DNA of 64,000 nucleotides from Elusimicrobiota bacterium (GTDB lineage Bacteria > Elusimicrobiota > Elusimicrobia > UBA1565 > UBA9628). The DNA is taken from NCBI GenBank assembly GCA_027452025.1, contig DAIDHI010000044.1:1493-65492 (forward strand). Reading direction: 5' to 3'. How positions within the stretch are numbered: position 1 is the stretch's first letter; every line of letters begins with the position of its first letter. Made by a program: the position numbers and the translations under genes. The notes beneath the pieces were generated by a model, which was given only the letters and a program-made list of their open reading frames with translations, did not search any database and had not been told where the DNA came from. Of the stretch, positions 33,780 through 56,391 are shown piece by piece.

Positions 33780-34321
33780 CAGAGGGGCTTGCCGACGTCC
33801 TGGAAGGGGCGCACCAGCCGCTCGAGCCAGCGCTGGTCCATCTCGTCGAAGGCGGCCGGCTCGTAGCTGTCGACGTCGAGGACGCCGAAGACCTTGCCGG
33901 CGAAGTCGAAGACCGGCACGGCGATCTCCGAGACGACCTTCGCGTCGCAGGCGATGTGCTCGGGGCCCAGCGCCTTGACGTCGGAAACGACCAGGGGCAG
34001 GCCGCTCTTGAGGACCTTGCCGCAGACGCCGTGCAGGGACAGCGGGTTGCAGGCGGGCTTGTCGCGGTGCGGGCCCAGGGACAGCTCCGCGCCGTTGGGC
34101 GCCAGCAAATAGAAGCCGCACCAGGAGTAGGGGCTGCCGCCGAAGTTGTCCCAGAGCGCCTCGATGACGTCGCGCATCATGCGGTCCGTCGTCAGCTGCC
34201 GCCGGCGCCACTTGCCCTCCAGGGTCTTATGGACGCGGTCATAGCGCGCCCGCGAGGGGCGCTGCTTGAGCTTCTGCATCTCCTCGATGCGCTTGGAAAT
34301 CTCGTCTAGCTCTTCAGCCAT
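33779..34321 (-). CDS. GAF-domain protein (free methionine-R-sulfoxide reductase / YebR-like)
   Basis: GAF-fold core with conserved Cys residues (…YSWCGFYLL…HIACD…). Confidence 0.65.
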   Translation of the reverse strand: MAEELDEISKRIEEMQKLKQRPSRARYDRVHKTLEGKWRRRQLTTDRMMRDVIEALWDNFGGSPYSWCGFYLLAPNGAELSLGPHRDKPACNPLSLHGVCGKVLKSGLPLVVSDVKALGPEHIACDAKVVSEIAVPVFDFAGKVFGVLDVDSYEPAAFDEMDQRWLERLVRPFQDVGKPL

Positions 34322-35993: not shown

Positions 35994-37397
35994 CTAGCAG
36001 ACCCCGGCCGGCGCCCGCGCCGCCGCGGCGCGCAAGGCCTTGGCGGCGGCCTCGCGCCCCGAGCGGATGCAGTCCGGGATTCCCACGCCGAAATAGGAGC
36101 AGCCCGCGAGCACCAGGCCCGGATGGCCCTGCACGCAGGAGTCCAGCCGCTTGAGGCGCAGCTGGTGGCCGACGGTGTACTGCGGGTTGGCCCGCACCCA
36201 GCGAAACACCCGGGTCAGACGCGGGTGCGCCTCGCCGATGCCCAGGATCTCCTTGAGCTCGCCGCGCGCCTGGCGGGCGATCTGCGAGTCGTCGGCGTCG
36301 ACGCAGGCGTCGCGGCCCGCGCCCCCGAGGAAGGAGCGGATGAGCGCGTGGCCGGCGGGAGCCCTGTTGGGAAACTTCGAGGAGGTGTAAGTCGCCGCGA
36401 CGGTGGCCTTGCCTTGGGAGCGGGGCACGATGAAGCCGAAGCCCGAAGGCTCGCTCTTGAGCGCGCCCGGCTCGAAGAGCATCGAAACGGTGGCCGTCGA
36501 GGCGAAGGGGATCTCGCGCAGCACGTGAGAGAGCTCGAAATCGTAGTCGCCGACGACCTGCGCCAGCGCGTTGGCCGGAAGGGCGCAGATCACGGCGTCG
36601 GCCGAGAGGACCGTCTCCCCCGCCTGGATATGCCACTGCCCGCCCCGCCGGCGCAGGGAAGAAACGGGCGCGCCGGTGCGCACCGTCTGGGGGGGCAGCT
36701 TGAGGGTCAAGGCCTCCACCAGGCGTCCGAGGCCGCCCCGCAGCGTCATGAAGGTCGTCAGCTCCGGGTCGGCCTTGCGGGCCTTGCGCTTGAGCATCGC
36801 GCGCGCCAGCCCCCCCTGCCGCTCCATCTCGCGCAGCTGAGGGAAGGTCGCCGCCAGGCTCATCTGCTGCGGGTCGCCCGCGTAGATGCCGGACAGCATG
36901 GGGCCGATGAGGCGCTCGTAGGCCTCCGGGCCCAGGCGCCGGCGCGCGAACGCCGCCAGAGACTCGTCGAGCGTCTCGGGCCCCGGCTTCAGGAAGTATT
37001 CCAGCGCCATGCGGGCCTTGCCCTTCCAGGTGAAAAGATCGCAGAGCAGAAAGGACAGCAGCCGCCGCTGCGGAATCGCCTTGAGCCGCCCCTCCCAGAG
37101 CACCGAGACCTTCGGGTCGCCTTCCGTGCCGACGAGGTCCAAGGAAAGGCCGAGCTCGCGGACGAGCTCGAGCGCCTGCGGCTTATAGGTGATGAAGGAG
37201 TCGGGACCGCCCTCGATGACGGCCCCGTCGCGAGACTCCGTCACGATCTTGCCGCCGACGCGCGAGGAAGACTCAAGCACCACGACGGAGATGTTGCGGC
37301 GCTCGGCCTGGGCCTTCTTGTGCAGCTCGTAGGCGGCCGTCAGGCCGGTGATGCCGGCCCCGAGCACGACGAAGCGGGATTCAGCGGCTGTATTCAT
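35994..37397 (-). CDS. hemY: Protoporphyrinogen/coproporphyrinogen oxidase (HemY-type, FAD)
   Basis: FAD fold VVLGAGITGLTAAYEL with PPO-like length. The ATG at 37397 overlaps the hemE 3' end by 17 nt. Confidence 0.85.
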   Translation of the reverse strand: MNTAAESRFVVLGAGITGLTAAYELHKKAQAERRNISVVVLESSSRVGGKIVTESRDGAVIEGGPDSFITYKPQALELVRELGLSLDLVGTEGDPKVSVLWEGRLKAIPQRRLLSFLLCDLFTWKGKARMALEYFLKPGPETLDESLAAFARRRLGPEAYERLIGPMLSGIYAGDPQQMSLAATFPQLREMERQGGLARAMLKRKARKADPELTTFMTLRGGLGRLVEALTLKLPPQTVRTGAPVSSLRRRGGQWHIQAGETVLSADAVICALPANALAQVVGDYDFELSHVLREIPFASTATVSMLFEPGALKSEPSGFGFIVPRSQGKATVAATYTSSKFPNRAPAGHALIRSFLGGAGRDACVDADDSQIARQARGELKEILGIGEAHPRLTRVFRWVRANPQYTVGHQLRLKRLDSCVQGHPGLVLAGCSYFGVGIPDCIRSGREAAAKALRAAAARAPAGVC

Positions 37398-38409
37398 GCA
37401 CCCATTCGACGACGGCCTTGACGCTGCTGACGGGCGTCTGCGGCAGCAGGCCGTGTCCCAGATTGAAGATGAAGCCGCGGCGTCCGGCGGCCTGCCGCAG
37501 CACGTCTTGGACGGCTTTCTTGAGCTCCCGCCGGGGAGCCAGCAACAGCGCCGGATCGAGGTTTCCCTGGATGCCGCGCGCGCCCACGCGCCGCCAAGCC
37601 TGCGAAAGCTCGACACGCCAGTCGACGCCGATCACGTCGCCGCCGGCCGAGGCGAAATCCTCCAGGAACCCGGCCGTCCCGGTGCCGAAGTGGATGACGG
37701 GCACGCCGGTCTTGCGCGCCGCCGTCAGGACGAAGCGGGAGTGCGGCAGGACGAAGCGGCGGTATTGCGAGGGCGACAGCGCCCCGATCCAGCTGTCGAA
37801 GAGCTGCACGGCCTGCGCCCCGGCGCGGACTTGCCCGGCCAAGTAGTCCGCGGTGACGCGGCGCAGCTTTCGCATGAGCAAATCCCAGGCGGCGGGCTGC
37901 TCGTGCATGAAGGTCTTGGTCCTGGCGAAGTCCTTGGAGGGGCCCCCCTCGATGAGGTAGCTGGCGAGCGTGAAGGGAGCGCCGGCAAAGCCGATGAGCG
38001 GCCGGGGCGCGAGCGCCCGGCTCGCCAAGCGCGCGGCGGAGAAGACGCAGCCGAGGCCTTCCTCGACGTCGAAGTCTTTGAGACGCCGCACGTCGGCGGC
38101 GCGGCGCACGGGGTTGTCGATGACCGGCGCGGGCGCGAAGCGCAGCCGCGCGCCCATCGGCTCCAAAGGCAGCAGGATGTCCGCGAACAAGATCCCGGCG
38201 TCCACGGGCATGGCGCGCGCCGGCTGCAGCGTGACCTCGCAGGCGAGCTCCGGCGTCTTGGCCAGTTGGAGAATCGAGTAGCGCTTGCGCAGCGCGCGAT
38301 ACTCCTCCATGTAACGCCCGGCCTGTCGCATGAACCAGACCGGGGTCCTGTCGACGGACTGGCGGCGACAGGCCCGCAGGAAGCGTCTTTCTGGCAAGGA
38401 CATGAACAC
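37381..38409 (-). CDS. hemE: Uroporphyrinogen decarboxylase
   Basis: N-terminal PVWFMRQAGRYMEEY and a URO-D fold throughout. Confidence 0.92.
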   Translation of the reverse strand: MFMSLPERRFLRACRRQSVDRTPVWFMRQAGRYMEEYRALRKRYSILQLAKTPELACEVTLQPARAMPVDAGILFADILLPLEPMGARLRFAPAPVIDNPVRRAADVRRLKDFDVEEGLGCVFSAARLASRALAPRPLIGFAGAPFTLASYLIEGGPSKDFARTKTFMHEQPAAWDLLMRKLRRVTADYLAGQVRAGAQAVQLFDSWIGALSPSQYRRFVLPHSRFVLTAARKTGVPVIHFGTGTAGFLEDFASAGGDVIGVDWRVELSQAWRRVGARGIQGNLDPALLLAPRRELKKAVQDVLRQAAGRRGFIFNLGHGLLPQTPVSSVKAVVEWVHEYSR

Positions 38410-40793: not shown

Positions 40794-41276
40794 ATGGATC
40801 AAGCCCAGCCGGCGTTCAAGCCGCTCAAGGAGATCGGCCAACTGCCGCTCTCGGACACCAGCGACCTGAAGTTCTACGTTGACGAATACAAGGGCTACAA
40901 GTACGGCTCGATCCGCACCTTCGTCAAAGGCGAGTCCTACTCGGGTCCGACCAAGTCCGGCATCACCTTCAACCCCTCCATCCTCGAGGGCATCCTCGAC
41001 GCCCTGGGAAAGCTTCCCTCGGAGCCGACCGATCTCGGCGAGCGGGAGTTGGCGCGCTTTCCCAAGAAGATGGGCAGCGAGCTCGTCGTGCGCATCACCA
41101 TCTTCAAGGACGCCACCGGCGTCGACCTGCGCGAGTGGGTCGAGGACGTGACCTACAAGGGCTGGTCCAAGAAAGGCGTGCGCATTCCTTATAAGGACCT
41201 GCCCAAGGCCCGCGATTTCCTCAAGGCTATGCAGCCGCTCATCGCCCGCGAGGGCAAAGTCAAGCCCGCCGAATAA
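40794..41276 (+). CDS. Tandem PC4/YdbC-like ssDNA-binding domain protein
   Basis: Two internal repeats: KFYVDEYKGYKYGSIRTFV...KSGITF and RITIFKDATGVDLREWVEDVTYKGWSKKGVRI, matching the PC4 'IDIREYW...KGISL' pattern. Confidence 0.55.
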   Translation: MDQAQPAFKPLKEIGQLPLSDTSDLKFYVDEYKGYKYGSIRTFVKGESYSGPTKSGITFNPSILEGILDALGKLPSEPTDLGERELARFPKKMGSELVVRITIFKDATGVDLREWVEDVTYKGWSKKGVRIPYKDLPKARDFLKAMQPLIAREGKVKPAE

Positions 41277-42270
41277 GCCTCAGTTCGAGCTCGCGCGCCA
41301 ATTCCAGGCGGGTCCTCAAAGCGCGCGGGAGATAGCCGACGGCCAGGGCCCGGTCATAGACCCCCAGCGCCTGCCGATGGCGCCCCGCGCGCGACAAGGC
41401 GATGGCTCGCCACCAATAGGCATAGGTAGGCGCCGGATCGACAGCCAGCAGGAGGCGGCATCCGCGTGCCAACTTCTCCCACCGCTGGTGCCATAGGTCA
41501 TCCCACGCCAGGGCGTAATGCCGGTCCAGCGCCAGGGAGTCCGGAAAGACCGGAGAGCCCCAGACGCGGCTCATGCGGGCATAGTTGCGGCTCAACGCGG
41601 ACTCGTCGGCGCGCAGGAGCTTTTCATGCCGGACGGCGATGTCGCCGCGATACAGGATGCGCGATCCCCGCTTCCGGGCCGTCAGGCAGAAGTCGGCGTC
41701 CTCGTATTGCTGGCGCAGGCTCTCCCTGAAATTTGTTCTCTGGAAGAGCTCTCCGCGCACGAGCATGCAGGTTCCCGCGACTCCGTCGCAGTAGCGGACG
41801 TAATTTCTCTGACCCAGGTCCGGTTCTTCGCGGCCGTGCTGGGCCCTCCACAGAAACATCTCGGCGCCGCAGATTCTCCCATCCGGATAGACGCTTCGGC
41901 AGCCCACGATGTCGGTCGTCGGGCCGGCCTCCAGGGCCGCGCCCAAAAGGCGCGCCAGCCATCCCGGAGACGCCGCGGCGTCGTCATCGAGGAAGGCGTG
42001 CCAGGCGGCGGGAAACCGGGCGACGGCCTCGTTGAGGGCGGCGGCCTTGCCTTTGTTGCTCGAATGGTTCAGGAAGTGGAGGCGGCGGCGGCGAGCGTAT
42101 CGGCGCAGAAAGCCTTCCGTCCCGTCCCGAGAACCGTTATTGACCACGATCAGCCGATAAGCGACGCCGCGCGTGTGGCGTTCGATGGACTCCAGGCACC
42201 GCCTCAGGGAAGGCAAGGCGTTATGCGTGACGACCGTCAGCGAAACGGCCCGGGAGTCCGAAGCGCTCAT
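41260..42270 (-). CDS. Family-2 glycosyltransferase
   Basis: GT-A N-terminus (SLTVVTHNALPSLRRCLESI...VVNNGSRDGT) and a DxD region. Confidence 0.8.
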   Translation of the reverse strand: MSASDSRAVSLTVVTHNALPSLRRCLESIERHTRGVAYRLIVVNNGSRDGTEGFLRRYARRRRLHFLNHSSNKGKAAALNEAVARFPAAWHAFLDDDAAASPGWLARLLGAALEAGPTTDIVGCRSVYPDGRICGAEMFLWRAQHGREEPDLGQRNYVRYCDGVAGTCMLVRGELFQRTNFRESLRQQYEDADFCLTARKRGSRILYRGDIAVRHEKLLRADESALSRNYARMSRVWGSPVFPDSLALDRHYALAWDDLWHQRWEKLARGCRLLLAVDPAPTYAYWWRAIALSRAGRHRQALGVYDRALAVGYLPRALRTRLELARELELRLIRRA

Positions 42271-43730
42271 GCGACGGCGAATCCGGAGGGCTCGAACTGG
42301 ATCTGCCGCGGCTTGCGCTCGACGTCGATGCCGTGGCGCATCGCGCAGGCATGAAGGGCCTGGTAGCGCCCGCGCCGGACCTCATAGGTGTTGAAACCGT
42401 CGCGCGTGGACCAGCGCCGGCGGTCCGTCAGGGGTTGCGCGACGCCGAACTCCCGGCGATGCGCGTCCAAAAAGGACCCCTTCGTGATCTCGCAGCAGGA
42501 GATCGCGACCTTGTCGACGAGCCCGCTGTGACGCCGCAGAAACTCGAGCGTCAGACGAAAATCCTCCTCGGTCTCGCCGGGAAAGCCGACCATCAGGAAC
42601 AGCTTGACCCTGATGCCCGCGGCCTCCGTGTCCCGAATGACGCGCTCGGCGTCCGAGACCTTGAAGTTCTTGCCTATCAGGTCGATGACGCGCTGGCTGG
42701 CGCTTTCCATGCCGTAGGCCAGCATCTGGCAGCCGCCCCAGCGCAGCTCGCGCAGCAAGGCCGGCGTCATCGTCGGATGAAGAATGGCCATGCCGCCCCA
42801 TCCAAAATCATGCCGCCGGCGCGCCGAGGCCCGCTCCAAGCGGATCGGGGCCAGGAGACGGGAGAGCCTGGACAGCCGGCGGACGTCCCCGTTGACGAGC
42901 GAATCTCCGAATTCGATATAGTATCTCTCCGGATAAAGGCCGAGCTGGTGCCTGATTTCCGCCGCAATGCGCTCCGGGCTCATACGCCGATAGACCTTCT
43001 GCTGCAGGATGTGCGTGCAGAAGGCGCAGGCTCTGACGCAGCCCCGGCTGCCGTTGAGAAACAGCCGCTCGAGGTCGTACTGGCTCAAGTCGAAGCCGCT
43101 AAAATCCATGAAGGGCAGCGTGTCGAGATCCCGGATCTCCTCCGGCTCTCCCCCGTCCACGATGCGGCCCGCTTCCTTGAGCAGCAGACCCTTGATCGGA
43201 CCGCGCGGGCGCCCCGCCCGGCGATCGAACTTCCGCGCCAGCTCGACGATGCTTTTGTCCGCCTCGCCCAAGGCGACGGCATCGACGGTCTCATGCCCCA
43301 AGAGTTCGCCGGCCATGGTCTCCCGCAGGCACTGCGGACCGCCTAACACCACGAAGGTCTTGGGCGCGCGCTTTTTGACCCGCTCGGCCAGCGCCAAGCT
43401 GCTCTCCTCGGTGGCCTGCAGGACGGAGAAGCCCACGATATCGGGGGCGTGAGACAAGATTTCGGCCGCCTGCGCGTCCATCACCCGCCCGAAAAACCGC
43501 CTCGGACGCAGAAGGGCGCCCATGAAGTCCTCCGGATAATCGAAGTGCAGCGGCCGCTCGCGGCCGAGGCGCCGCGCCAAGGCCAGCCGGGCGCCCAGGC
43601 TGGCGTCGCAGACGGCCGGGGCGAATCCCGCCGCCTTCAAATGGGCGCTCAAGAGGGCGATGGCGTTCGAAGGGCCGCGGCCGACGAAGGCGGGGGCTTG
43701 CACTAAGACGACGCGGGGACCGGTTTGCAC
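42267..43730 (-). CDS. B12-binding-domain radical SAM protein (class B), paralog 1
   Basis: N-terminal cobalamin-binding Rossmann-like domain and radical SAM CxxxCxxC (GCVRACAFCTH). 4-nt overlap with the downstream GT2. Confidence 0.8.
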   Translation of the reverse strand: MQTGPRVVLVQAPAFVGRGPSNAIALLSAHLKAAGFAPAVCDASLGARLALARRLGRERPLHFDYPEDFMGALLRPRRFFGRVMDAQAAEILSHAPDIVGFSVLQATEESSLALAERVKKRAPKTFVVLGGPQCLRETMAGELLGHETVDAVALGEADKSIVELARKFDRRAGRPRGPIKGLLLKEAGRIVDGGEPEEIRDLDTLPFMDFSGFDLSQYDLERLFLNGSRGCVRACAFCTHILQQKVYRRMSPERIAAEIRHQLGLYPERYYIEFGDSLVNGDVRRLSRLSRLLAPIRLERASARRRHDFGWGGMAILHPTMTPALLRELRWGGCQMLAYGMESASQRVIDLIGKNFKVSDAERVIRDTEAAGIRVKLFLMVGFPGETEEDFRLTLEFLRRHSGLVDKVAISCCEITKGSFLDAHRREFGVAQPLTDRRRWSTRDGFNTYEVRRGRYQALHACAMRHGIDVERKPRQIQFEPSGFAVA

Positions 43731-43768
43731 AACGAGACGTAGTGTATTATCCTATCAACGGTTAGTCC

Positions 43769-43906
43769 ATGACTAAACCAGAAAAGCCCGAAGGCCCGCG
43801 CAAAGACGGCAAAAAGCGCCGCTATGTCGCTCCGACCTTAGTGATCGCGGGCAGCCTGCTGGCCATGTCGCAAAAGGGCTTGATGGCCACCTCTATTCCC
43901 GGCTGA
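43769..43906 (+). CDS. Candidate small ORF (45 aa): basic N-terminus plus hydrophobic C-terminus
   Basis: MTKPEKPEGPRKDGKKRRYVAPTLVIAGSLLAMSQKGLMATSIPG. Lies in the 200-bp gap between a radical-SAM gene and a GT2 gene. No clear SD; not in the ORF track. Confidence 0.25.
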   Translation: MTKPEKPEGPRKDGKKRRYVAPTLVIAGSLLAMSQKGLMATSIPG

Positions 43907-43929
43907 AGCGCCGCAACGGCCCGTCCCTC

Positions 43930-44748
43930 ATGCCTTCCTCGCCGTTGGTCAGCGTCCTCCTGACGACCTATAACCGCCTGGCCTTCCTGAAAACCGCGCT
44001 TCGGAGCGTGCGCCGCCAGACCTTCCGCGACCTGGAAACGATCGTCCTGGACGGAGGATCGGCCGACGACTCTCTGCGCTGGCTGGACCAAAACCTGCAC
44101 TCCGGCGAGAGGCTCATCAGGCTGGAGGCAAACCCCGGCCCGGTCGCCTTGATGAACGCGGGCCTCCGAGCCGCCGGCGGACGGTTCGTCGCTTTTCTGG
44201 AGGCGGACGATTACTGGCTGCCCGATTATTTGGAGTCCATGCTCCGGGAGTTCCGCGCCGGCGCGGTGCAATGGGTCTCCTCCGGCTGCCGCATCATCGA
44301 GGGCCGGCGCGTCATCGGCGCCGTCGACGCCCGCGGAACGCGCCTGCCCCGTCACGATCCGCTGCTTTTGAAGCTGACCGGCTGCAACATCCACTGCCTG
44401 ATGTCGATGAGCATGGCTCGCCGGTCGATCTTCTCGGAGATAGGCCTCTTCGATCCGGCCTATAAGTGGATCGGGATGGACATGGATTTCGTCTGCAGGC
44501 TGGCCCTGGCGCGGGGCCCGCGGGCGTTCGGCCACGCCGATCGAATCCTGGCCGTGCGCCGTCACCACCCCGAGCAGATCACGGATGTGCCGGGACCCTG
44601 GCATTGGAAGACGCCGACGCCTTGGGGCCGGGACTGCGTCGCAAGCCCCAGGCAGCGCGAATTCTACCTGGACTTGGCGCTCTACTATTGCCGCTACCGC
44701 AACGAGATCGAAGCCGCTCTGAAAGAAAGCGGCGAGAAGCCTCAATAG
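43930..44748 (+). CDS. Family-2 glycosyltransferase
   Basis: VSVLLTTYNRLAFLKTALRSV...IVLDGGSAD...LEADDYW (DxD). Confidence 0.8.
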   Translation: MPSSPLVSVLLTTYNRLAFLKTALRSVRRQTFRDLETIVLDGGSADDSLRWLDQNLHSGERLIRLEANPGPVALMNAGLRAAGGRFVAFLEADDYWLPDYLESMLREFRAGAVQWVSSGCRIIEGRRVIGAVDARGTRLPRHDPLLLKLTGCNIHCLMSMSMARRSIFSEIGLFDPAYKWIGMDMDFVCRLALARGPRAFGHADRILAVRRHHPEQITDVPGPWHWKTPTPWGRDCVASPRQREFYLDLALYYCRYRNEIEAALKESGEKPQ

Positions 44749-46244
44749 TCGAGCTTGCTCTCGTATAGATCGCAGGCCAGGCCCAGGCTTTTGGCGAGCT
44801 TGGCCGCGCGGCGGCAGCGATCGACTCGGATCTCGTGGGTGTTCGAACCGTCGGGAAGGGCCCAGCGGGTCCTGTCCGCCACGGGCGCCGCTATGCCGTA
44901 GGCGCGCGGGCGCACATCCAGGTCGCTGCCCAGCGCCATTTCGGAGAAGGAGATGCTGACCCGGGTGACGTGCTCGGCGTTTCGACGAAGGAAGTCGAAC
45001 GTTTTCTGGACGTCCTTTTCGGTCTCGCCGGGGAAGCCGAACTGGAGATAAAGCTGCGTCCCGATCCCGGCTTTTCGAGTGTTCCGAATGACGGCCTCGG
45101 CATCCTGGATCGAGAATCTCTTGGCCATCGCATCCACGACCTTTTGGCTCGCGCTTTCCAACCCATAGGACAGCCTGACGCATCCGGACGCCCTCAGTTT
45201 TTTCAGCACCGCCGGCGTCATGGTCGGGTGCAGAATGGCCATGCCGGACCAGAAGAAGGCGCCCTTCTCTCCGAGCTTGGCCAGCCGCTCCAAACGCCAG
45301 GAGGCCAGCAAATCGGCCAGCTTGGCCAGCCGCGCGATGTTCCCGTTGACCAAAGAGTCGCTGAAATCGATGAAGCGCCGCTCCGGGAAATTGCGCAGCG
45401 CGTTCTGGACTTCCAGCAGGCTCCTTTCCGGGCTCATGGCCGCAAAGCGCTTCTGCTGCAAAAAATGGGTGCAAAATCGGCAGCGCCGGAAGCAGCTCCT
45501 GACGGTATTGAGGTAGATGCGATCGCCCTCGTAATCCTCCATCGGGAAGCCGCCAAAATCCAGGAAGGGCAGGGAGTCGATGGGCTCATCCCACGCGGCC
45601 TCGCCTCCGTCCAGAACGCGGCTGCCGCGCTTCAAGATCACTCCGGGGATCAAAGGCATATCGCGGCCCCGAAGCTCGGAGCGGGCGCGCATCAGCCTGG
45701 GAAAGGAATCGTCGGCCTCGCCGGACACGACGGCATCGACGCTGGGCTCGCGGATGTATTCTCCGGCGCGGCACTGCCTCAGGCAGTCCGGGCCGCCGAA
45801 GACCACGAAGCACCCGGGCTTTCGCCGCTTGATCTCGCCGGCCAGGGCGAGGCTCCATTTTCGCGTGTAGCTCAAGACGCAGAACGCCGCCACGTCGGGC
45901 TCGGACTCAAGGATCTTATCCGCCTCCCGCTCCAAGAAGGTCTCCACGAGGCGGGGATTGGCCTTGAGCGCCTCGTGATACTCGTCATGAGCGCAAAAGG
46001 TTCGTTTGAGGGCCGCGGAAAGGGCCTTGCGCACGCGCGTGCTCGAATCGACGATCACGGGCGGGAAGCCGGCTTTTTTCGAGTGCGCCTGAAGCAAAGC
46101 CAGGCCGTTGGACGGCGTGATCCAGTCGTAGGAAGGCGGCTGAATCAGGGTCAGCCGCGCGTTATCGCCGGGCACGAGATACCTCCGAGGAACTGAAACG
46201 CCACGGAAGGGAAATGATAATAATTTAAGCCTGCCCCTCGCCAC
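44742..46244 (-). CDS. B12-binding-domain radical SAM protein (class B), paralog 2
   Basis: Collinear with the 42267-43730 protein; CxxxCxxC = SCFRRCRFCTH; shared GMAILHPTMTPA and GFPGETE blocks. Convergent 7-nt overlap with the GT2 at 43930-44748. Confidence 0.8.
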   Translation of the reverse strand: MARGRLKLLSFPFRGVSVPRRYLVPGDNARLTLIQPPSYDWITPSNGLALLQAHSKKAGFPPVIVDSSTRVRKALSAALKRTFCAHDEYHEALKANPRLVETFLEREADKILESEPDVAAFCVLSYTRKWSLALAGEIKRRKPGCFVVFGGPDCLRQCRAGEYIREPSVDAVVSGEADDSFPRLMRARSELRGRDMPLIPGVILKRGSRVLDGGEAAWDEPIDSLPFLDFGGFPMEDYEGDRIYLNTVRSCFRRCRFCTHFLQQKRFAAMSPERSLLEVQNALRNFPERRFIDFSDSLVNGNIARLAKLADLLASWRLERLAKLGEKGAFFWSGMAILHPTMTPAVLKKLRASGCVRLSYGLESASQKVVDAMAKRFSIQDAEAVIRNTRKAGIGTQLYLQFGFPGETEKDVQKTFDFLRRNAEHVTRVSISFSEMALGSDLDVRPRAYGIAAPVADRTRWALPDGSNTHEIRVDRCRRAAKLAKSLGLACDLYESKLDY

Positions 46245-46306
46245 GCAAGCCGAGATGCCTCCGAGCTTCCGCCCCCGGCCCGGGCAATAAGCTACAATCC
46301 CGGCCG

Positions 46307-47110
46307 ATGGCCCCCCGAGCGCGGCGCCTGGCGAGCATCATCGTCCCGTGCTGGAACAATCTAGAGCATACCCGCCGCTGCGCGGCGAGCATTCTCGAGA
46401 AGACCCAAGCGCCCTTTGAGCTGATTTTCGTCGACAACGGCTCGACCGACGGCACCGGGGCCTACCTCAAGGCGCTCAGCCGCGAAACCGGCGCGCGGGT
46501 CCTTGCCAATCGCCGCAATCTGGGGTTCGGCCCCGCGATCAACCAAGGCATGCGGGCGGCCGCCGGCGCCTACCTCGTCTGGCTCAACAACGACGCCGTC
46601 GTCACCACGGGCTGGCTCGAGCGCCTCAGCGACTGCGCCGAGCGCTCTTCGTCGACGGGAGCGGTCGGCCCCCACGTCAATTCGGACGGGCTGCCTCCAA
46701 GCCGTCCGCGCTCGACTCCGGAGCAGATCGCGGCCCTCCTCGCGATGAAGAAAAATCGACGCTCGCGGGTCGTGCCCTGGCTCACAGGCTTCTGCCTGCT
46801 GCTCAAGCGGCGGGCCGCGGAGCAGGTGGGCCTTCTGGACGAACGCTTTCGCATGGGAACCTTCGAGGACTACGATTACTGCCTGCGGCTGCGGCAGGCC
46901 GGCTATCGCGTCGTCCTGGCCGAGGACGCGTACGTCCACCACCACTGGCACGGGTCGCTGACGTCGCTTAAAGGTCATGGGCGCCTCACCGCGGCCAACC
47001 GCCGACTTTTTGTCGACAAGTGGTGCCGCGTGTTCCTGGACTCGCTGGCGGGCGCCCAGCCCATCCAAGCGCTCGAAGACCCCTTTTGGACCCCTCGCGT
47101 CGGGAAATGA
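46307..47110 (+). CDS. Family-2 glycosyltransferase
   Basis: SIIVPCWNNLEHTRRC...FVDNGSTDGT...FEDYDYCLR. Confidence 0.8.
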   Translation: MAPRARRLASIIVPCWNNLEHTRRCAASILEKTQAPFELIFVDNGSTDGTGAYLKALSRETGARVLANRRNLGFGPAINQGMRAAAGAYLVWLNNDAVVTTGWLERLSDCAERSSSTGAVGPHVNSDGLPPSRPRSTPEQIAALLAMKKNRRSRVVPWLTGFCLLLKRRAAEQVGLLDERFRMGTFEDYDYCLRLRQAGYRVVLAEDAYVHHHWHGSLTSLKGHGRLTAANRRLFVDKWCRVFLDSLAGAQPIQALEDPFWTPRVGK

Positions 47111-47176
47111 GGGAGGGCACCCCTGGCCGCCCGCGAAATTCGATAAAATAAAAAAACCCATGGCCCACGACGACAG

Positions 47177-47983
47177 ATGAGCGGCGAAGTCCTGGCCCCC
47201 GCCACCGCGCGGAAAGACCCGCCGAAAGCGTTTCCCTACTGGAATCTCCTCTACGAGATGACGCGCTGCGAGTTCAAGCTGCGCGACCAAGGGACCGCCT
47301 TGGGCTTCTTCTGGACCTTGCTCAATCCGGCGATCCAGTTCGCCGTGATGTACGAGCTCTTCACCAAATGGATGGGCTCGCAGGTCCCCAACTACGCTCT
47401 TTATCTGATCATCGGCCTTTTGCAATGGGGATTTTTCGCCAACGGGACGTGCATGGCCCTGATGAGCCTGCGCGCCAAGCAGGGCATCGCCCAGGGCTTC
47501 AAGTTCCCTCGCGAGATCATCGTCCTTTCCACGATCGGGACCATCCTCTGGTCGCACCTGCTCGAGCTCTCGATCGTGCTGGCGTTCCTGCTCCTGTTCA
47601 CCCACACGCTGTCGTGGACCTGGATCTATGTGCCTCTGCTCATCGCCATCGAGGTGCTGTGGACGGCGGGAATATCTCTTTTCCTGGCGCGCTGGGCGGT
47701 GGAGTTCCGGGACCTCGACCGCATCTGGTCGATCCTGATGCAGGCCGGCTTTTTCGTCACGCCCGTTTTCTATCCTCTAAAGATCATCGCCAAGAGCAAG
47801 CGCTTCTGGCTGGAGCTCAACCCCCTGGTCCACATCATGGACGGCATGCGCGCGTGCCTCCTGCGCAACCAGACTCCGCCCGACTGGATCGTGGCCCTGC
47901 TGGTCGTCGGAGGCGGCGGCCTGATGTACGGCGGCCTGCTGTGGTTTCGGGCTCATGAGGGGACCATCGTGGACCACCTCTGA
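47177..47983 (+). CDS. wzm: ABC-2 type polysaccharide/polyol-phosphate exporter permease (Wzm/TagG/KpsM-like)
   Basis: Six TM helices and an ABC-2 family signature. Confidence 0.8.
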   Translation: MSGEVLAPATARKDPPKAFPYWNLLYEMTRCEFKLRDQGTALGFFWTLLNPAIQFAVMYELFTKWMGSQVPNYALYLIIGLLQWGFFANGTCMALMSLRAKQGIAQGFKFPREIIVLSTIGTILWSHLLELSIVLAFLLLFTHTLSWTWIYVPLLIAIEVLWTAGISLFLARWAVEFRDLDRIWSILMQAGFFVTPVFYPLKIIAKSKRFWLELNPLVHIMDGMRACLLRNQTPPDWIVALLVVGGGGLMYGGLLWFRAHEGTIVDHL

Positions 47984-47985
47984 TC

Positions 47986-48759
47986 ATGGACCGGACGATC
48001 CTCCGCCTCAAGGACGTAGGCAAGCGCTTCTACCTGACGACGCGCTCCGAAAGGACGGTGTTCAAGACGTTCATGCGCCACCTCACGGGCCAGGAAGGCC
48101 AGCGGGAACTCTGGGCCCTGCGCGGTGTCAACCTGGACGTGGCGGAAGGAGAGGTCCTGGGCGTCATCGGCGCCAATGGAGCCGGCAAGAGCACGCTGCT
48201 CTCGATCATGGCCGGCATCATGGACCCTACCGAAGGGACCGTCGAGCGCGAAAAGGAGGTCCGCACTCCTTTTCTGGGCCTTGGCGCCGGCATGCAGCCC
48301 GAACTCGGCCTCGAGGACAACATCCGGCTCTGCTCGGCCCTGCTCGGCCTGTCGCGCAAGGACTGCGACGAGCGCCTGGAGAAGATCCTCGCTTTCGGAG
48401 GGCTGGAGCCCTACCGCCATGCCAAGCTCAGCGAGCTGTCCTCCGGCTATCAGATGCGCGTGGCGTTTGCGACGGCGTTCCACACCGACTCCGATTTCCT
48501 GATCATCGACGAGAGCATGGCGGCCGGCGACATGCAATTCAAGGAGAAGTGCATGCGCAAGTTCGAGGAATACCTCGCCCAAAAGAAGACCATCGTGCTG
48601 GTCAGCCACGAGATGGGCGCCATCCGCGAGATCTGCGGACGCTGCCTCTATTTGCGCGACGGCCGCCAAGTCGCCCTGGGGCCGACCGACGAGGTGGCGC
48701 TGCTTTACGAGCAGGATTGCGCCGCGAAGATCGCGGCGCAAACGCCCGAAGGGGCATGA
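47986..48759 (+). CDS. wzt: ABC transporter ATP-binding protein (Wzt/TagH/KpsT-like, short form without a C-terminal carbohydrate-binding domain)
   Basis: Walker A GANGAGKST, LSGG variant LSSGYQMR, Walker B LIIDE; 2 nt after the wzm stop. Confidence 0.85.
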   Translation: MDRTILRLKDVGKRFYLTTRSERTVFKTFMRHLTGQEGQRELWALRGVNLDVAEGEVLGVIGANGAGKSTLLSIMAGIMDPTEGTVEREKEVRTPFLGLGAGMQPELGLEDNIRLCSALLGLSRKDCDERLEKILAFGGLEPYRHAKLSELSSGYQMRVAFATAFHTDSDFLIIDESMAAGDMQFKEKCMRKFEEYLAQKKTIVLVSHEMGAIREICGRCLYLRDGRQVALGPTDEVALLYEQDCAAKIAAQTPEGA

Positions 48760-53679: not shown

Positions 53680-56391
53680 GTGATCGCGGCGGCGCTGTTT
53701 CTTTGGCTGGCGCGCCCGGCCGCCGCCGCCACGGGCCGCCTGGCCGTCATCGAGGACAGCCCCTTCCGCCTCTCCGTGACCCTCGACGATCCTCTCCAGC
53801 AGCTCATCAAGCTTTCGTCGCAGACGGCGTCCCTGCTCGACGTACAGGTCATCCCCGGCTATTACGCGGGCTCCGACTACCGCTTCGCCGTCGAGCAGGA
53901 AGAGCCGGTCGAGACGCGGACGATCCAGGCCGCGGTCCTGGAGTCGCCCTCCCAAGCCGCCTTGGTGTATCCGGCCATCCCTTCGCTGGTGGACGGCCTC
54001 AAGCGGCTGGCGGAGACGCCCGATTCCTTCAAGGAAAATTGGACGGTGCGTCTGTCGTCGCGCGCCGTGACGCTGTCCCAGGTCGCCGGGCCCGACGGCG
54101 AGGCGATCCTCTCGGCCCTGCTCAATCCCGACGAGGAAGCGGCGTTTTGGCAAAACACCGCCGGCGTGCTTTATCGCCTGCGCTGGCAGGGCCAGGACGC
54201 GCAGGTGCTCATCATCGGCAAGGTGTTCGGCGGCCTCGACCGGCTGGCCGGCGTGCTCGAGAATCAGCCCAAAGGGGTGCTCGGAGTCTCCCGCGGCGGG
54301 ATCATGTTCAGCCTGATCCCGGAGCTTTCGGGCCGCAACCTCCCCAAGACCCTGGCGCGCCTCGGCCTCAAGTATTCGGCGGTCTCGAACTCGGAAATGC
54401 GCCATTGGAGCGACGTGCTGGCCTACCAGACCGAGCACCCGGACGGCGTGCGGTTCTTGTCGGCGAACCTGGTCTATTCGACGGCGCCCGCGCAGTCGCT
54501 GCTGCCCGGCTACGCGCTGACGCGCGCCGGCGCCCTGAGCGTGGCGCTCGTCGGGCTGACGCCGCCGGGCGCCTCGAAATACCTGGGGGAAGCGGGGCTT
54601 TCCCGAGCCAAGATCGACGACCCCGCGCAGACCCTCGCCGCTCTCGTGCCGCGCCTGCGCGCGAAAGTCGACGCCGTCGTCGTCCTGGCCGAAGTCGACG
54701 ACGACCTCGAGCGCCGCCTGCGCAAGATTCCCGGAGTCGACTTGGTCATCGGCAGGACCGTGAACCTGCCGCCGGGCGTGCCGGGAGCCGTCCGGACGCT
54801 GTCCCAAAACGACCGCCCGGCCTACTCGCCCCCGCTGGACATCGCCTCCGTCTACGCCGGGGACTTCAACGGCTTCGAGCTCGACGTCTCCACCGGCGTC
54901 TCCGGGCGCGACTGGACGCTGCGCCAAAACGCCGTCCTGCTCGACGACTCCGTGCCGCAGCCCCACCGCTACCCCGGCTTCGACCCGGCCGCCTACGGGA
55001 TCACCCTCGCCTCGGGCACCGTGCTCATCCCCGCGGCGCGGCAGGCCTTTCCTCAATCCAGCGACCTGGCCCCGGTCTACACGGCGCGGGATTTCTGGAC
55101 GATGGCGGCCAGCCTCCTGGCCCGCCGCACGCATTCCGAGGCGGCGCTGCTGCGCGTGTCCCCGCTGCCTATCGAGCTCGCCGGGCAAATCAAGGAAAGC
55201 GTGGCGCGCGTCTGGCTAGAGAGCGAGGAGCCCGCGATGATCGTCTGGCTCAAAGGCTCCGACCTCAAGCCCTTGCTCGCCGAGGTCAAGGCCCAGCAGA
55301 ACGCGGCGCCGGGCCGCGTGTCCCAGTATCCGGCCATGACGGCCGGCGGCATACAGTCCGGCGAGAAGATCCACGGCGCGCCGATCCAGGACAATGAAGT
55401 CTACCGCGTCGCCACTTCCCAGGTGCTGGCCGACGCCCTCGGCCTCACTGCGGACCACCGGCACAAGTTCCTGAAGAAGACCATCGACCAATTGGTGCTC
55501 CAGGCTCTGCGGCGCCAAGCGGGCTCTCCGGCGCCCGACTACGGCCGCTGGGCGCGGGGCCGTCCGGTCGGAAACCCCGGCCTCTGGCGCGTCAATTTCC
55601 GCGACGTGGGGCTCAACATCCAGAACACCGACGTCGTCGCCAGCGACGCCTTCAACAACGTCCCCAATCCCCAGGTGCAGGCGTTCTCGCAGTTTTTGAT
55701 CGGCGGCGACTTCAAGGCCGACGCCGACTACATCCAGGATCCGCTCAAGTGGTCGAACACCCTGGAGATGGAATATGCGCGGGCGCAGGTCCGTCCGCGC
55801 GACATGCCCGAAGTGACCAACCTGGCCGCCAACCGCATCAGCCTCCTGACCATGGGCACCAAGCGCGCCGGCAGCGTCTCCGGGGAGCCCTGGCTGGCCG
55901 GCTCCTGGGGGCCGTCGCTGGGCCTGCAATACGACAGCCAGTTCGAGGCCAACCCGGGCCTGCCCCGGCAAAATCTCGTCAGCGCCTTCCCCGGCGTGCA
56001 GCTCTACGACGGCAGCTGGATCCAGTCCGTGGAATTCACCGGGGCCGTCCTGCGCGACCAGTCGCGCACTCCGCCCAATACCCAGTACGGCTTTCACACG
56101 CGCTGGATTCTCACCCACACGATCTCCTCGCCGGCGCCGATCACCTTCAACGGCGAGTTCTTCGCCAACTACTATTTCCTGACCCACGACGACACCAACC
56201 AGGATTTGCGCTTCGAGTCCGACGCCAACCTCAAGCTGCAGTTCCCGATCCGCAAGTATCTGAGCGTGGCGCCCTTCATCGAGCTTTACGTCTTCGCTCT
56301 CAAGGTCCAGCCGGTCTGGGGCTACAGCGCGATGACGGGAATCAGCATCGACTTCTCGCGCCTTTGGAAGCCGCAGTATGAAGCCTTCTGA
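53680..56391 (+). CDS. Large secreted protein with an OMP-like C-terminus (ends ...PQYEAF)
   Basis: Signal peptide, 903 aa. The C-terminal ~350 aa are rich in alternating aromatic/hydrophobic beta-strand patterns and the terminal residue is Phe. Confidence 0.55.
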   Translation: MIAAALFLWLARPAAAATGRLAVIEDSPFRLSVTLDDPLQQLIKLSSQTASLLDVQVIPGYYAGSDYRFAVEQEEPVETRTIQAAVLESPSQAALVYPAIPSLVDGLKRLAETPDSFKENWTVRLSSRAVTLSQVAGPDGEAILSALLNPDEEAAFWQNTAGVLYRLRWQGQDAQVLIIGKVFGGLDRLAGVLENQPKGVLGVSRGGIMFSLIPELSGRNLPKTLARLGLKYSAVSNSEMRHWSDVLAYQTEHPDGVRFLSANLVYSTAPAQSLLPGYALTRAGALSVALVGLTPPGASKYLGEAGLSRAKIDDPAQTLAALVPRLRAKVDAVVVLAEVDDDLERRLRKIPGVDLVIGRTVNLPPGVPGAVRTLSQNDRPAYSPPLDIASVYAGDFNGFELDVSTGVSGRDWTLRQNAVLLDDSVPQPHRYPGFDPAAYGITLASGTVLIPAARQAFPQSSDLAPVYTARDFWTMAASLLARRTHSEAALLRVSPLPIELAGQIKESVARVWLESEEPAMIVWLKGSDLKPLLAEVKAQQNAAPGRVSQYPAMTAGGIQSGEKIHGAPIQDNEVYRVATSQVLADALGLTADHRHKFLKKTIDQLVLQALRRQAGSPAPDYGRWARGRPVGNPGLWRVNFRDVGLNIQNTDVVASDAFNNVPNPQVQAFSQFLIGGDFKADADYIQDPLKWSNTLEMEYARAQVRPRDMPEVTNLAANRISLLTMGTKRAGSVSGEPWLAGSWGPSLGLQYDSQFEANPGLPRQNLVSAFPGVQLYDGSWIQSVEFTGAVLRDQSRTPPNTQYGFHTRWILTHTISSPAPITFNGEFFANYYFLTHDDTNQDLRFESDANLKLQFPIRKYLSVAPFIELYVFALKVQPVWGYSAMTGISIDFSRLWKPQYEAF

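Follow-up and report, generated by a model that had tools for sequence, protein, structure and literature searches.

The locus analysed here encodes, besides seven genes for glycosyltransferases, radical-SAM enzymes and a transporter, a conserved peptide of 45 residues. It therefore most likely modifies, glycosylates and exports a ribosomal peptide, as a candidate new RiPP (ribosomally synthesised, post-translationally modified peptide) family in uncultured Elusimicrobiota, rather than building a polysaccharide. The cluster lies within the window, a 64-kb stretch (64,000 nucleotides) of contig DAIDHI010000044.1 of the Elusimicrobiota bacterium assembly GCA_027452025.1. The features of the locus are as follows.

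41260-42270 (-), GT2a, 336 aa, a soluble GT-A glycosyltransferase with a helical-repeat (TPR-like) C-terminal extension of about 90 aa
42267-43730 (-), rSAM#1, 487 aa, a class-B (B12-binding domain) radical-SAM enzyme, defining for the family
43769-43906 (+), precursor-like peptide gene, 45 aa, MTKPEKPEGPRKDGKKRRYVAPTLVIAGSLLAMSQKGLMATSIPG
43823-43858 (+), leader-type recognition motif within the peptide, residues Y19-L30, YVAPTLVIAGSL
43874-43903 (+), predicted core of the peptide, residues K36-G45, KGLMATSIPG
43930-44748 (+), GT2b, 272 aa, a soluble GT2 immediately downstream of the peptide gene
44742-46244 (-), rSAM#2, 500 aa, a class-B radical-SAM paralog
46307-47110 (+), GT2c, 267 aa, a soluble GT2 and first gene of the GT2c-permease-ATPase block
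47177-47983 (+), ABC-2 type permease (Wzm/TagG/KpsM-like), likely exporter subunit
47986-48759 (+), ABC ATPase, 257 aa, TagH/Wzt-like nucleotide-binding domain only, without a C-terminal carbohydrate-binding domain

An earlier note on this sequence had described the seven larger genes as two paralogous B12-binding radical-SAM enzymes, each paired with a GT2, together with a third GT2 and a Wzm/Wzt exporter, and this observation is confirmed. All seven ORFs are present at exactly the coordinates given there, and show the coding-type GC1>GC2<GC3 pattern expected in this 67% GC genome. Pfam searches assigned Glycos_transf_2 to the three GT2s (E-values from 1e-22 to 1e-29), ABC2_membrane to the permease, ABC_tran to the ATPase, and Radical_SAM plus B12-binding to both rSAMs, the B12 domain scoring 35.5 bits in rSAM#1, above the gathering score of 32.1, but 21.3 bits, below the gathering score, in rSAM#2. 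The two rSAMs are collinear paralogs, 47% identical over 451 aa (E=2e-140), and carry the motifs CVRACAFCTH and CFRRCRFCTH, respectively; the three cluster cysteines are invariant in 30 family members. The ATGA overlap that translationally couples rSAM#1 and GT2a, and the convergent 7-nt overlap of GT2b and rSAM#2, were read directly from the sequence. The reported absence of Wzx/Wzy, nucleotide-sugar genes and SAM methyltransferases holds for nearly all predicted genes of the window, which were scanned against Pfam.

What had been overlooked is the small ORF at 43769-43906 (+), located in the 200-bp gap between rSAM#1 and GT2b, and it changes the interpretation. It is divergent from rSAM#1, with 38 bp between the start codons, and probably forms an operon with GT2b, which starts 23 nt downstream. 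The ORF is a called gene in public records (P0108), is seen identically in a second metagenome, and has no match in Rfam. Thirteen non-redundant homologs were found, lying beside close rSAM homologs (at least 49% identical) wherever the contig shows the neighbours. The strict motif Y..P.[LIM]...G[SN]L occurs 13 times in 1.42 Mb of fetched loci, against 0-2 in shuffled sequences, and every hit lies next to an rSAM homolog at least 49% identical. An unbiased all-vs-all comparison of small intergenic ORFs returned this family as the top cluster, and more members were found in metagenomes and by an exhaustive HMMER search (P0113), while distant rSAM loci lack the peptide. Comparison with L001, the locus of the closest genome (loci carrying rSAM homologs are numbered with the prefix L), showed that the segment Y19-G45 has 9 identical, 14 synonymously different and 4 non-synonymously different codons, and 17 of 27 nucleotide differences are at third positions. 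The 12 C-terminal residues, SQKGLMATSIPG, are identical in L001 despite 9 synonymous codon changes. These data indicate, on sequence evidence alone and without expression or product data, that the ORF is translated.

An alignment of 12 peptides revealed a Lys/Arg-rich N-terminus followed by the family consensus YxxPx[LIMF]xxxGxL. This resembles the leader of lasso peptides, in which YxxPxL is the conserved motif at positions -17 to -12 (PMC10368454), although profile matches were weak and below threshold: NF033528, the lasso leader model, was matched by the L008 homolog (E=0.0024), and DUF5972 by the window peptide (E=0.006). The core KGLMATSIPG is delimited by analogy with the lasso leader register, and T41/S42 are candidate glycosylation sites, since in 11 of the 13 peptides a Ser/Thr lies within two residues after a conserved Ala; both the boundary and the modification sites are inferred. 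The predicted core is very short, 7-10 aa in the short peptide types.

The constant set of genes in this family is the peptide, an rSAM1-like gene and a GT, which is normally a GT2b-like GT2. All 11 close-clade loci with adequate flanks carry the peptide, an rSAM1-like gene (49-64% identical orthologs of rSAM#1 in the peptide loci) and a GT2. The latter is GT2b-like in ten of them (L001, L002, L004, L007, L008, L009, L010, L087, L089 and L167, with 36-61% identity) and GT2c-like in L019. The operon of the peptide and GT2b recurs in three lineages, with a spacing of 23 nt in the window, 63 nt in L001 and 6 nt in L167. The conservation of rSAM-GT2 adjacency in related genomes, named beforehand as a test, was thus examined: both rSAM/GT2 pairs are conserved in L001, where the rSAM#2 ortholog is 73% identical and in the same convergent arrangement, and rSAM/GT co-occurrence holds in every close-relative locus. 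Orthologs of GT2a occur in L001, L009 and L010, while GT2c has no clear ortholog in L001, the third GT2 there being closest to GT2b. The type of peptide covaries with the set of enzymes. Long peptides with CC[LV]TER go with a flavin amine oxidase in all 5 loci long enough to judge, AFATT-type peptides go with GT4 (3/3) and with the full GT4+PIG-L+GT2+GT4 set in 2 of those 3, and the GLMATSIPG type goes with GT2a+rSAM2+GT2b (2/2). The cluster appears as a compositionally distinct island, with GC3 of 0.80-0.87 against 0.88-0.95 in the flanks, and the flanks are not syntenic with L001.

Both rSAMs have the class-B (B12-type) radical-SAM fold, the AF2 model of rSAM#1 having a pLDDT of 90.4 and the top PDB folds found by Foldseek being CysS, TsrM, OxsB, MgmA and TokK. 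Their best curated matches are the RiPP C-methyltransferases TIGR03975 and ApyD, and the best PDB match by sequence is MgmA, a protein-residue C-methylase. However, they score far below the TIGR03975 cut-off (133 bits for rSAM#1 and 110 for its paralog against 282) and are only 13-17% identical to any solved enzyme, so that methylation is a guess; moreover, AprD4 has the same fold but no cobalamin. The three GT2s lack transmembrane segments and show only generic GT-A similarity. In GT2a the residues DDD95-97 and ED190-191 are invariant, the C-terminal residues 267-331 give a weak match to the TPR protein SGTA (E=0.009), and this region forms five helices at pLDDT 70-93 in an otherwise poor model. 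The permease has transmembrane segments and matches the galactan Wzm model with 60.5 bits against a cut-off of 380, and its homologs, 35-42% identical, lie beside distant rSAM relatives in L021, L034 and L038. The ATPase scores 141 bits against 320 for TagH and 128 against 400 for galactan Wzt, and a 44%-identical homolog is found at the edge of the peptide locus L008.

Taken together, the locus is best explained, with moderate confidence, as an eight-gene RiPP-type cluster. In this view the 45-aa peptide would be the substrate, and its Lys-rich N-terminus and YxxPxLxxxGxL segment would act as a leader docking it onto the tailoring enzymes. No RRE domain is present, so recognition is probably direct, by rSAM#1 and possibly by the TPR-like tail of GT2a. 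The two rSAM paralogs would modify the short C-terminal core, most likely by cobalamin-dependent C-methylation of unactivated carbons at different sites, or alternatively may act on sugars already attached to the peptide. The three GT2s, of which GT2b would be co-transcribed with the peptide, would glycosylate the core, probably at the conserved Ser/Thr after the conserved Ala, adding either separate sugars or a short chain, and the ABC-2 permease/ATPase pair would export the product. The analysis itself establishes the gene content, the existence of the peptide family and its purifying selection, the co-inheritance of peptide, rSAM and GT2b, and the class-B fold, whereas the role of the peptide as substrate, the types of reaction, the sites, the order of steps, leader removal, and the product and its role are inferred. 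This reading is weakened by the absence from the cluster of an RRE/PqqD domain and of a leader protease, the adjacent Tsp protease not being conserved in other loci. No curated family or paper that we could find describes the system.

The earlier note interpreted the locus as an ABC-transporter-dependent glycan-assembly pathway in which class-B radical-SAM chemistry modifies the glycan or glycolipid. This interpretation is only partly supported, since the class-B enzymes, their conserved pairing with GT2s and the apparent novelty of the system hold, while the polysaccharide or glycolipid pathway is not supported and appears unlikely. In its favour are the three GT2s, the ABC-2 permease, the nearest models of the ATPase being glycopolymer exporters, and the occurrence of distant rSAM relatives (about 36% identical) in envelope-glycan-like contexts with DegT, PMT_2, ALGX/GDSL and an ABC-2 permease, as well as next to the Wzm/Wzt homologs in L021, L034 and L038; the superfamily is therefore not exclusively peptide-linked. 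However, no initiating phosphoglycosyl transferase, polymerase, chain terminator or nucleotide-sugar gene was found among the scanned genes of the window, the GT2s are soluble, the transporter is absent from the cluster of the closest relative, both its subunits score far below the curated cut-offs, and the best curated matches of the rSAMs are RiPP maturases, not HpnP/HpnR or GrsA-type lipid enzymes. Treating the small ORF as an unrelated accessory or membrane protein also does not explain why a translated peptide with a leader-like motif is co-inherited with the rSAM clade, nor why its sequence type tracks the enzyme set.

Two further readings retain the peptide and are likewise unlikely. 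By analogy with mycofactocin and PQQ, the peptide may be only a scaffold, from which a few C-terminal or core residues modified by the rSAMs are excised, glycosylated and exported as a small molecule. Consistent with this, the mycofactocin glycosyltransferase MftF is a top or top-three NCBIfam match of all three GT2s (E from 1e-16 to 1e-25), short-type peptides end only 4-6 residues after the conserved Ala-Ser/Thr, relatives add a flavin amine oxidase, 2OG oxygenases and a beta-eliminating lyase, which are typical small-molecule tailoring enzymes, and MftF-type oligoglycosylation of a peptide-derived cofactor is documented (PMC7491314). However, the MftF scores (60-88 bits) are far below the cut-off of 280, there are no MftB/MftC/MftE-like genes and no peptidase, and in long-type peptides the conserved core is internal and followed by a conserved tail of about 30 aa, which does not fit excision from the C-terminus. 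Alternatively, the peptide may insert in the membrane, with the Lys-rich N-terminus inside and the hydrophobic YxxPxL segment as anchor, and replace undecaprenyl phosphate as the acceptor of a short rSAM-modified glycan that is then flipped to the cell surface by the Wzm/Wzt-like transporter. The similarity of the ATPase to glycopolymer exporters, the soluble GT2s and the lack of a lipid-carrier initiating enzyme would fit, and 9 of 12 peptides have a moderately hydrophobic 17-residue segment (Kyte-Doolittle 1.0-1.6) after 8-10 Lys/Arg residues. But the peptides of L002, L008 and L019 keep the motif while being hydrophilic there (-0.4 to -1.2), so the conserved feature is the motif and not hydrophobicity; besides, the hydrophobic stretch is only about 15 residues long and the transporter is present in only some peptide loci (the window and L008).

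Among known systems, RiPP clusters with cobalamin-dependent radical-SAM C-methyltransferases (NCBIfam TIGR03975, ‘RiPP maturation radical SAM C-methyltransferase’, ApyD, PoyB/PoyC of polytheonamides and the three paralogs of bottromycin) share the N-terminal B12-type Rossmann domain followed by a radical-SAM barrel with CxxxCxxC, several paralogs per cluster and the location next to a small peptide gene. The enzymes described here are not members by score, are shorter (about 490 aa against roughly 600-650 aa), and are combined with glycosyltransferases and a leader that is not of the NHLP/Nif11 type. Lasso-peptide precursors, whose leader is read by the RRE of the B1 protein, share the Lys-rich N-terminus and Y-x-x-P-x-L-x-x-x-G, but no B1 (RRE), B2 protease or C cyclase was found in the cluster or among the scanned genes of the window, and the peptide has no Asp or Glu after Tyr19 and so cannot form the macrolactam ring. 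Glycocins of the sublancin type likewise combine a ribosomal peptide, a GT2-family glycosyltransferase and ABC export, and the GT-A domain with a helical-repeat tail predicted for GT2a is an architecture of SunS/ThuS. However, sequence searches of solved structures gave no SunS/ThuS match, the window peptide has no Cys and thus no disulfides or S-glycosylation, there is no peptidase-containing ABC transporter, and two radical-SAM enzymes are present. The mycofactocin pathway (MftA-F) also comprises a small peptide, a radical-SAM enzyme and a GT2, MftF being the top NCBIfam match of GT2a and GT2c and the third-best of GT2b, and relatives of the locus also carry a flavin oxidase, but here the rSAM is class B and not SPASM-type MftC, MftB, MftD and MftE are lacking, all scores are far below the cut-offs and an exporter is present. 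ABC-transporter-dependent glycan export (Wzm/Wzt of O-antigen and galactan, TagGH of teichoic acid) differs in the features given above, including the glycan-binding domain missing from the ATPase, and shares with the locus an ABC-2 permease and a TagH/Wzt-like ATPase next to GT2 genes.

All seven of the ORFs that the earlier note had described as a glycan-assembly locus are present at the following positions, so its observation is confirmed, and they show the codon-position GC pattern of real genes in this 67% GC sequence. Pfam searches assigned them as follows:

41260-42270, minus strand: GT2a, a family-2 glycosyltransferase
42267-43730, minus strand: rSAM1, a protein with a B12-binding domain plus a radical-SAM domain
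43930-44748, plus strand: GT2b, a family-2 glycosyltransferase
44742-46244, minus strand: rSAM2, a protein with a B12-binding domain plus a radical-SAM domain
46307-47110, plus strand: GT2c, a family-2 glycosyltransferase
47177-47983, plus strand: ABC-2 permease
47986-48759, plus strand: ABC ATPase

The two rSAMs are collinear paralogs, 47% identical over 451 residues, carrying the CxxxCxxC motifs reported in the note. The ATGA overlap of rSAM1 with GT2a and the 7-nt convergent overlap of GT2b with rSAM2 were read directly from the sequence. The cluster is flanked by housekeeping genes, with a CNNM/CBS transporter, a PC4-like protein, heme genes and TonB/ExbBD upstream, and Tsp protease and ClpB downstream; the rest of the window is likewise housekeeping. 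The PC4-like protein (40794-41276, plus strand; 160 aa, with a PC4 ssDNA-binding transcriptional coactivator domain) convergently overlaps the end of GT2a by 17 nt, but was not found in any related cluster and is probably not part of the system. Upstream of the cluster, at 34314-35342 (minus strand), 35994-37616 (minus strand) and 37381-38409 (minus strand), a 342-aa radical-SAM protein lies near a protoporphyrinogen-oxidase-like flavin amine oxidase and uroporphyrinogen decarboxylase, which looks like a heme-biosynthesis block unrelated to the cluster; the longest-ORF calls for the last two genes overlap, so the start of 35994-37616 is probably further downstream. Two large ORFs at 53680-56391 (plus strand; 903 aa) and 1246-3606 (minus strand; 786 aa) have a clear coding GC3 signature but no Pfam match at E<=1e-4 and E<=1e-5, respectively. 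The cluster genes have a lower GC3 (0.80-0.87) than the flanking housekeeping genes (0.88-0.95), and the cluster lies in a different genomic context in the closest relative, which together suggest a horizontally mobile island.

The 200-bp gap between rSAM1 and GT2b is not empty, and contains a gene missing from the earlier note:

43769-43906, plus strand: an ATG-initiated 45-codon ORF encoding MTKPEKPEGPRKDGKKRRYVAPTLVIAGSLLAMSQKGLMATSIPG

This ORF ends 23 nt before the GT2b start codon and is divergent from rSAM1, with 38 bp between the two start codons. It came to attention because relatives of the rSAM in metagenomic contigs had tiny called genes beside them, the products of which resembled it. 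A 138-nt gene hidden in an 'intergenic' gap reversed the functional reading of seven well-annotated neighbours.

The rSAM family is small, with about 37 proteins 43-64% identical to rSAM1, many of them from Elusimicrobiota MAGs. One 780-aa protein, P0033, fuses a close rSAM relative (48% identical) to DUF3050 and a heme-oxygenase-like (PF14518) domain. The nearest genomes are all Elusimicrobiota, with weaker relatives in Omnitrophota, Planctomycetota and Bdellovibrionota. In the closest genome (GCA_027451985.1, locus L001) both rSAM/GT2 pairs are conserved in the same arrangement, and the same small ORF lies in the same gap and ends with GSLLLMSQKGLMATSIPG. That cluster has no ABC transporter; it carries instead a third B12-rSAM, another GT2, a B12-rSAM with DUF4070 and a beta-eliminating lyase of the tryptophanase/tyrosine phenol-lyase family, the latter two (L001 1173-4155) occupying the position that GT2c and the ABC transporter occupy in the window. 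Only the cluster itself aligns between the two genomes (66-69% nucleotide identity), not the flanks.

Four independent lines of evidence indicate that the small ORF is real. Between the window and L001, the 27 codons from Tyr19 to Gly45 comprise 9 identical, 14 synonymously different (including a TCT/AGC serine switch) and only 4 non-synonymous codons, 17 of 27 nucleotide differences fall at third positions, and the last 12 residues are identical, which shows purifying selection. The motif Y..P.[LIM]...G[SN]L occurs 13 times in the 1.42 Mb of related loci then collected, against 0-2 times in shuffled sequences, and every occurrence is next to an rSAM homolog at least 49% identical. An all-against-all comparison of 1,473 small intergenic ORFs returned this family as the largest cluster and added a member, in locus L019. 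Finally, more members were found in metagenome loci (L087, L089) and by an exhaustive HMMER search of 1.84 billion proteins, which added one relative, P0113, bridging the short and long types described below and lying in the order GT4, peptide, GT2b-like gene; a word-index search with the peptide had found only itself. The peptide of the window is a called gene in public records (P0108, found only on a 521-bp ENA contig) and recurs identically in a second metagenome. Neither the gap nor the window matched any Rfam family, so the gap is not a known riboswitch or RNA, and a scan for sigma-70 promoters and terminators was uninformative (2 sites against 0.9 expected).

The peptide family comprises 13 non-redundant members, all with a Lys/Arg-rich N-terminus (8-10 basic residues in 12 of 13) followed by Y-x-x-P-x-[LIMF]-x-x-x-G-x-L. 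Downstream of this conserved leader-like segment they fall into short forms of 30-49 aa, ending in GLMATSIPG, AFATTVG, AFAITPG, AFATTLS or AFATSA, and long forms of 67-77 aa, with CC[LV]TER and a conserved tail of about 30 residues. In 11 of the 13 peptides a Ser/Thr lies within two residues after a conserved Ala, while those of loci L002 and L008 have Gly at that position. The leader-like part resembles lasso-peptide leaders, in which YxxPxL is the conserved motif at positions -17 to -12 (PMC10368454); in the window peptide it reads Y19-V-A-P22-T-L24. Two peptides gave weak, sub-threshold matches to the lasso model NF033528 (E=0.0024 and 0.065), and two others, including that of the window, to DUF5972 (E=0.006 for the window peptide). 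Using the lasso register, the predicted core of the window peptide would be KGLMATSIPG. A Sec-signal-peptide reading, based on the positive N-region, the hydrophobic stretch and the AxA-like 'AFA' or 'ASA' before the Thr, was considered and rejected, since the peptides of L002, L008 and L019 keep the motif but are hydrophilic there; the same observation weakens a membrane-anchor reading.

Every close-clade locus with adequate flanking DNA, that is the window, L001, L002, L004, L007, L008, L009, L010, L019, L087 and L089, carries the peptide, an rSAM1-like gene and a GT2, which is GT2b-like in ten of the eleven and GT2c-like in L019. The peptide gene lies next to the rSAM and/or GT2 in these loci, usually directly adjacent to the rSAM, and the arrangement of the peptide gene followed by GT2b in a probable operon recurs in three lineages (the window, L001 and the further peptide locus L167). 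The C-terminal part of the peptide falls into types that track the accessory enzymes. CC[LV]TER peptides co-occur with a flavin amine oxidase in all 5 loci long enough to judge (L002, L008, L010, L019 and L089), usually together with 2OG oxygenases and a second B12-rSAM type; AFATT-type peptides co-occur with GT4, L004 and L007 having the full set of GT4, PIG-L deacetylase, GT2 and GT4; and the GLMATSIPG type co-occurs with GT2a, rSAM2 and GT2b. Such covariation of substrate sequence and enzyme set is what one expects if the peptide is the substrate.

The peptide, or any other conserved small ORF, was also sought in distant rSAM loci (37% identity or less) and on contigs with rSAM2 only (L011 and L093), but nothing meaningful was recovered apart from an unrelated conserved small TM protein of about 55-62 aa (...LWW[ML]xP...PF[IV]Y[AV]LF). 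The latter (L015 17022-17210, L023 2193-2381, L034 8917-9096 and L038 7195-7359) lies beside distant (about 30-35% identical) B12-rSAM relatives, and next to Wzm/Wzt homologs in L034 and L038; these distant loci look glycan-related rather than peptide-related. Distant relatives of the rSAM (about 36% identical) sit in envelope-glycan-like contexts with DegT, PMT_2, ALGX and an ABC-2 permease, or in very large rSAM/SPASM arrays. In L086 (JGI 3300039157 contig Ga0418799_111829), positions 1565-21665 hold a very large tandem array of at least nine radical-SAM genes (B12-type and SPASM-type), together with a NosD/beta-helix protein and two proteins of about 760 aa with no Pfam domain, around a 37%-identical relative. 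In L012, L013, L015 and L017, from Omnitrophota/Planctomycetota MAGs, three to four tandem paralogs of the 30-37%-identical rSAM clade lie head to tail, and no associated peptide of the family described here was found. A conserved Cys-rich small protein of about 40 aa (MAVKKxGEKYxCNVCGNEVxVTKxGGGxLVCC...), of desulforedoxin-like appearance, in Omnitrophota loci (L016 9092-9214, L050 18210-18335 and L066 18549-18701) is unrelated to the system.

Both rSAMs have the features of class B (cobalamin-dependent) radical-SAM enzymes at the level of sequence and predicted structure. The Pfam Radical_SAM domain was found in both (E≈1e-14), and C231, C235 and C238 of the CxxxCxxC motif are invariant in 30 sequences; the B12-binding domain scores 35.5 bits in rSAM1, above the gathering score, and 21.3 bits in rSAM2, below it. 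The AF2 model of rSAM1 is confident (pLDDT 90.4), and its best structural matches are the class-B enzymes CysS, TsrM, OxsB, MgmA and TokK (TM about 0.6, 13-17% identity), although AprD4, which has the same fold without cobalamin, also matches, and cobalamin binding and methyl transfer are inferred only. No RRE-like or winged-helix appendage is seen in the model. The best curated sequence models are RiPP C-methyltransferases, TIGR03975 and ApyD, followed by HpnJ and the MCR glutamine C-methylase, none of which reaches its cut-off, and the best PDB match by sequence is MgmA, a protein-residue C-methylase.

All three GT2s, 267-336 aa in length, have no TM segments and retain DxD/ED motifs. Sequence searches against the PDB gave only generic GT-A hits (GalT1, chondroitin synthase, PglI, TagF), which do not discriminate between peptide and glycan acceptors. 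GT2a has a C-terminal helical-repeat tail of about 90 residues with a weak TPR match; with only three usable homologs its AF2 model is poor (pLDDT 55), and only this helical tail is credible. The transporter is a generic ABC-2 system, the ATPase being closest to TagH/Wzt-type models but far below their cut-offs and lacking a C-terminal glycan-binding domain. Homologs recur at one other peptide locus (L008) and beside distant rSAM relatives (L021, L034 and L038).

The best-supported explanation, held with moderate confidence, is a RiPP-type cluster. In this view, the peptide is docked through its leader-like motif, the two class-B rSAM paralogs modify it, most plausibly by C-methylation at different sites, as in other multi-paralog RiPP systems, the soluble GT2s glycosylate it, and the ABC-2 transporter exports it. 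While the gene content, the purifying selection on the peptide and its co-inheritance with the rSAM and GT2 come directly from the data, the identity of the substrate is an inference from co-inheritance, covariation and selection, and the modification of the peptide by these enzymes, the chemistry, the sites, the order of steps, leader removal, export and the biological role are all inferred. No PqqD/RRE or peptidase Pfam hit was found in the eight genes, and the neighbouring Tsp protease is not conserved in other loci, although neither feature is obligatory for RiPPs. All family scores are sub-threshold, and the contexts of the distant rSAM relatives show that the wider superfamily is not uniformly peptide-linked, so the rSAMs here might act on peptide-borne sugars. 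The interpretation in the earlier note is supported in part: it was right that something undescribed is present and that the rSAM/GT2 association is conserved, but it was probably wrong about the substrate.

Three other explanations are considered unlikely. The lipid-carrier glycan pathway of the earlier note agrees with the resemblance of the ATPase to glycopolymer exporter models and with the glycan-like contexts of distant rSAM relatives, but no initiating polyprenyl-phosphate glycosyl-phosphate transferase, polymerising GTs or chain terminator was found by Pfam among the window genes scanned, although such genes could still lie elsewhere in the genome. A mycofactocin-like route, in which a peptide-derived small molecule is glycosylated, appears slightly less likely still. 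Equally doubtful is a peptide-anchored glycan flipped by the Wzm/Wzt-like transporter. Here the ribosomal peptide would be not just a natural-product precursor but a protein substitute for the polyprenyl-phosphate carrier, anchored by its Lys-rich N-terminus and hydrophobic YxxPxL segment; the soluble GT2s would build a short glycan on its C-terminal Ser/Thr, the two B12-rSAMs would modify that glycan, and the ABC-2 transporter would flip it outward. The hydrophilic members of the family weaken this reading, but it is not excluded, and if true it would represent a lipid-carrier-independent, ABC-dependent route to a surface glycopeptide in Elusimicrobiota.

If the peptide is the substrate, this is a candidate new RiPP family confined so far to uncultured Elusimicrobiota, a phylum for which no RiPP report was found in the literature searched. 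It would combine cobalamin-type radical-SAM chemistry with multiple glycosyltransfers on a very short core, and would use a lasso-like leader without any RRE, cyclase or protease, which raises the question of how a class-B rSAM or a GT2 reads such a leader. The family is modular, since the same leader and rSAM are combined with GT2, GT4/PIG-L, 2OG oxygenases, a flavin amine oxidase and further B12-rSAMs, giving a natural series for working out the enzymology, and the proposal is amenable to direct testing. No NCBIfam or Pfam family covers the peptide, neither the rSAMs nor the transporter subunits reach any curated NCBIfam cut-off, and literature searches, in a collection that is incomplete and so offers absence of evidence only, found no described system with this composition. 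The system is therefore regarded as a candidate new RiPP family built from known enzyme classes.

Comparison with described systems places the cluster close to several of them but inside none of the specific families examined. It fits the generic definition of a RiPP cluster in having a short ribosomal precursor gene co-inherited with the putative modifying enzymes and a bipartite precursor with a conserved leader-like segment and a C-terminal part that varies with the enzyme set. With lasso peptide systems it shares the YxxPxL leader motif, but a lasso reading was rejected, since no Asn-synthetase-like cyclase, B2 protease or B1 RRE was found in the cluster or among the scanned genes of the window, and the peptide has no Asp or Glu after Tyr19 that could serve as the acidic residue at core position 7-9. 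In comparison with SunS-type glycocins, no SunS/ThuS chain is among the PDB sequence hits of the GT2s, the window peptide has no Cys, and the transporter is of the ABC-2 type rather than a peptidase-domain exporter. The GT2s score 60-88 bits with the mycofactocin glycosyltransferase MftF, against a cut-off of 280 bits, and the partner genes MftB, MftC, MftD and MftE are absent from the cluster. Among glycan exporters, the permease scores 60.5 bits against a cut-off of 380 for galactan Wzm and 24.7 against 300 for KpsM, and the ATPase 141 against 320 for TagH and 128 against 400 for Wzt. The models for class-B enzymes of hopanoid and other lipid pathways (ladderane/tetraether type), of the kind which the earlier note had named, score far lower than the best-matching RiPP model, and their cut-offs are also far from reached (HpnJ 88.8 bits against 577.6, HpnR 28 against 650, rSAM_ladder_B12 47 against 360). 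The RiPP maturation radical-SAM C-methyltransferase family TIGR03975 remains the best-matching model for both rSAMs, which with 133.2 and 109.7 bits against a curated cut-off of 281.85 bits are not members of this family.
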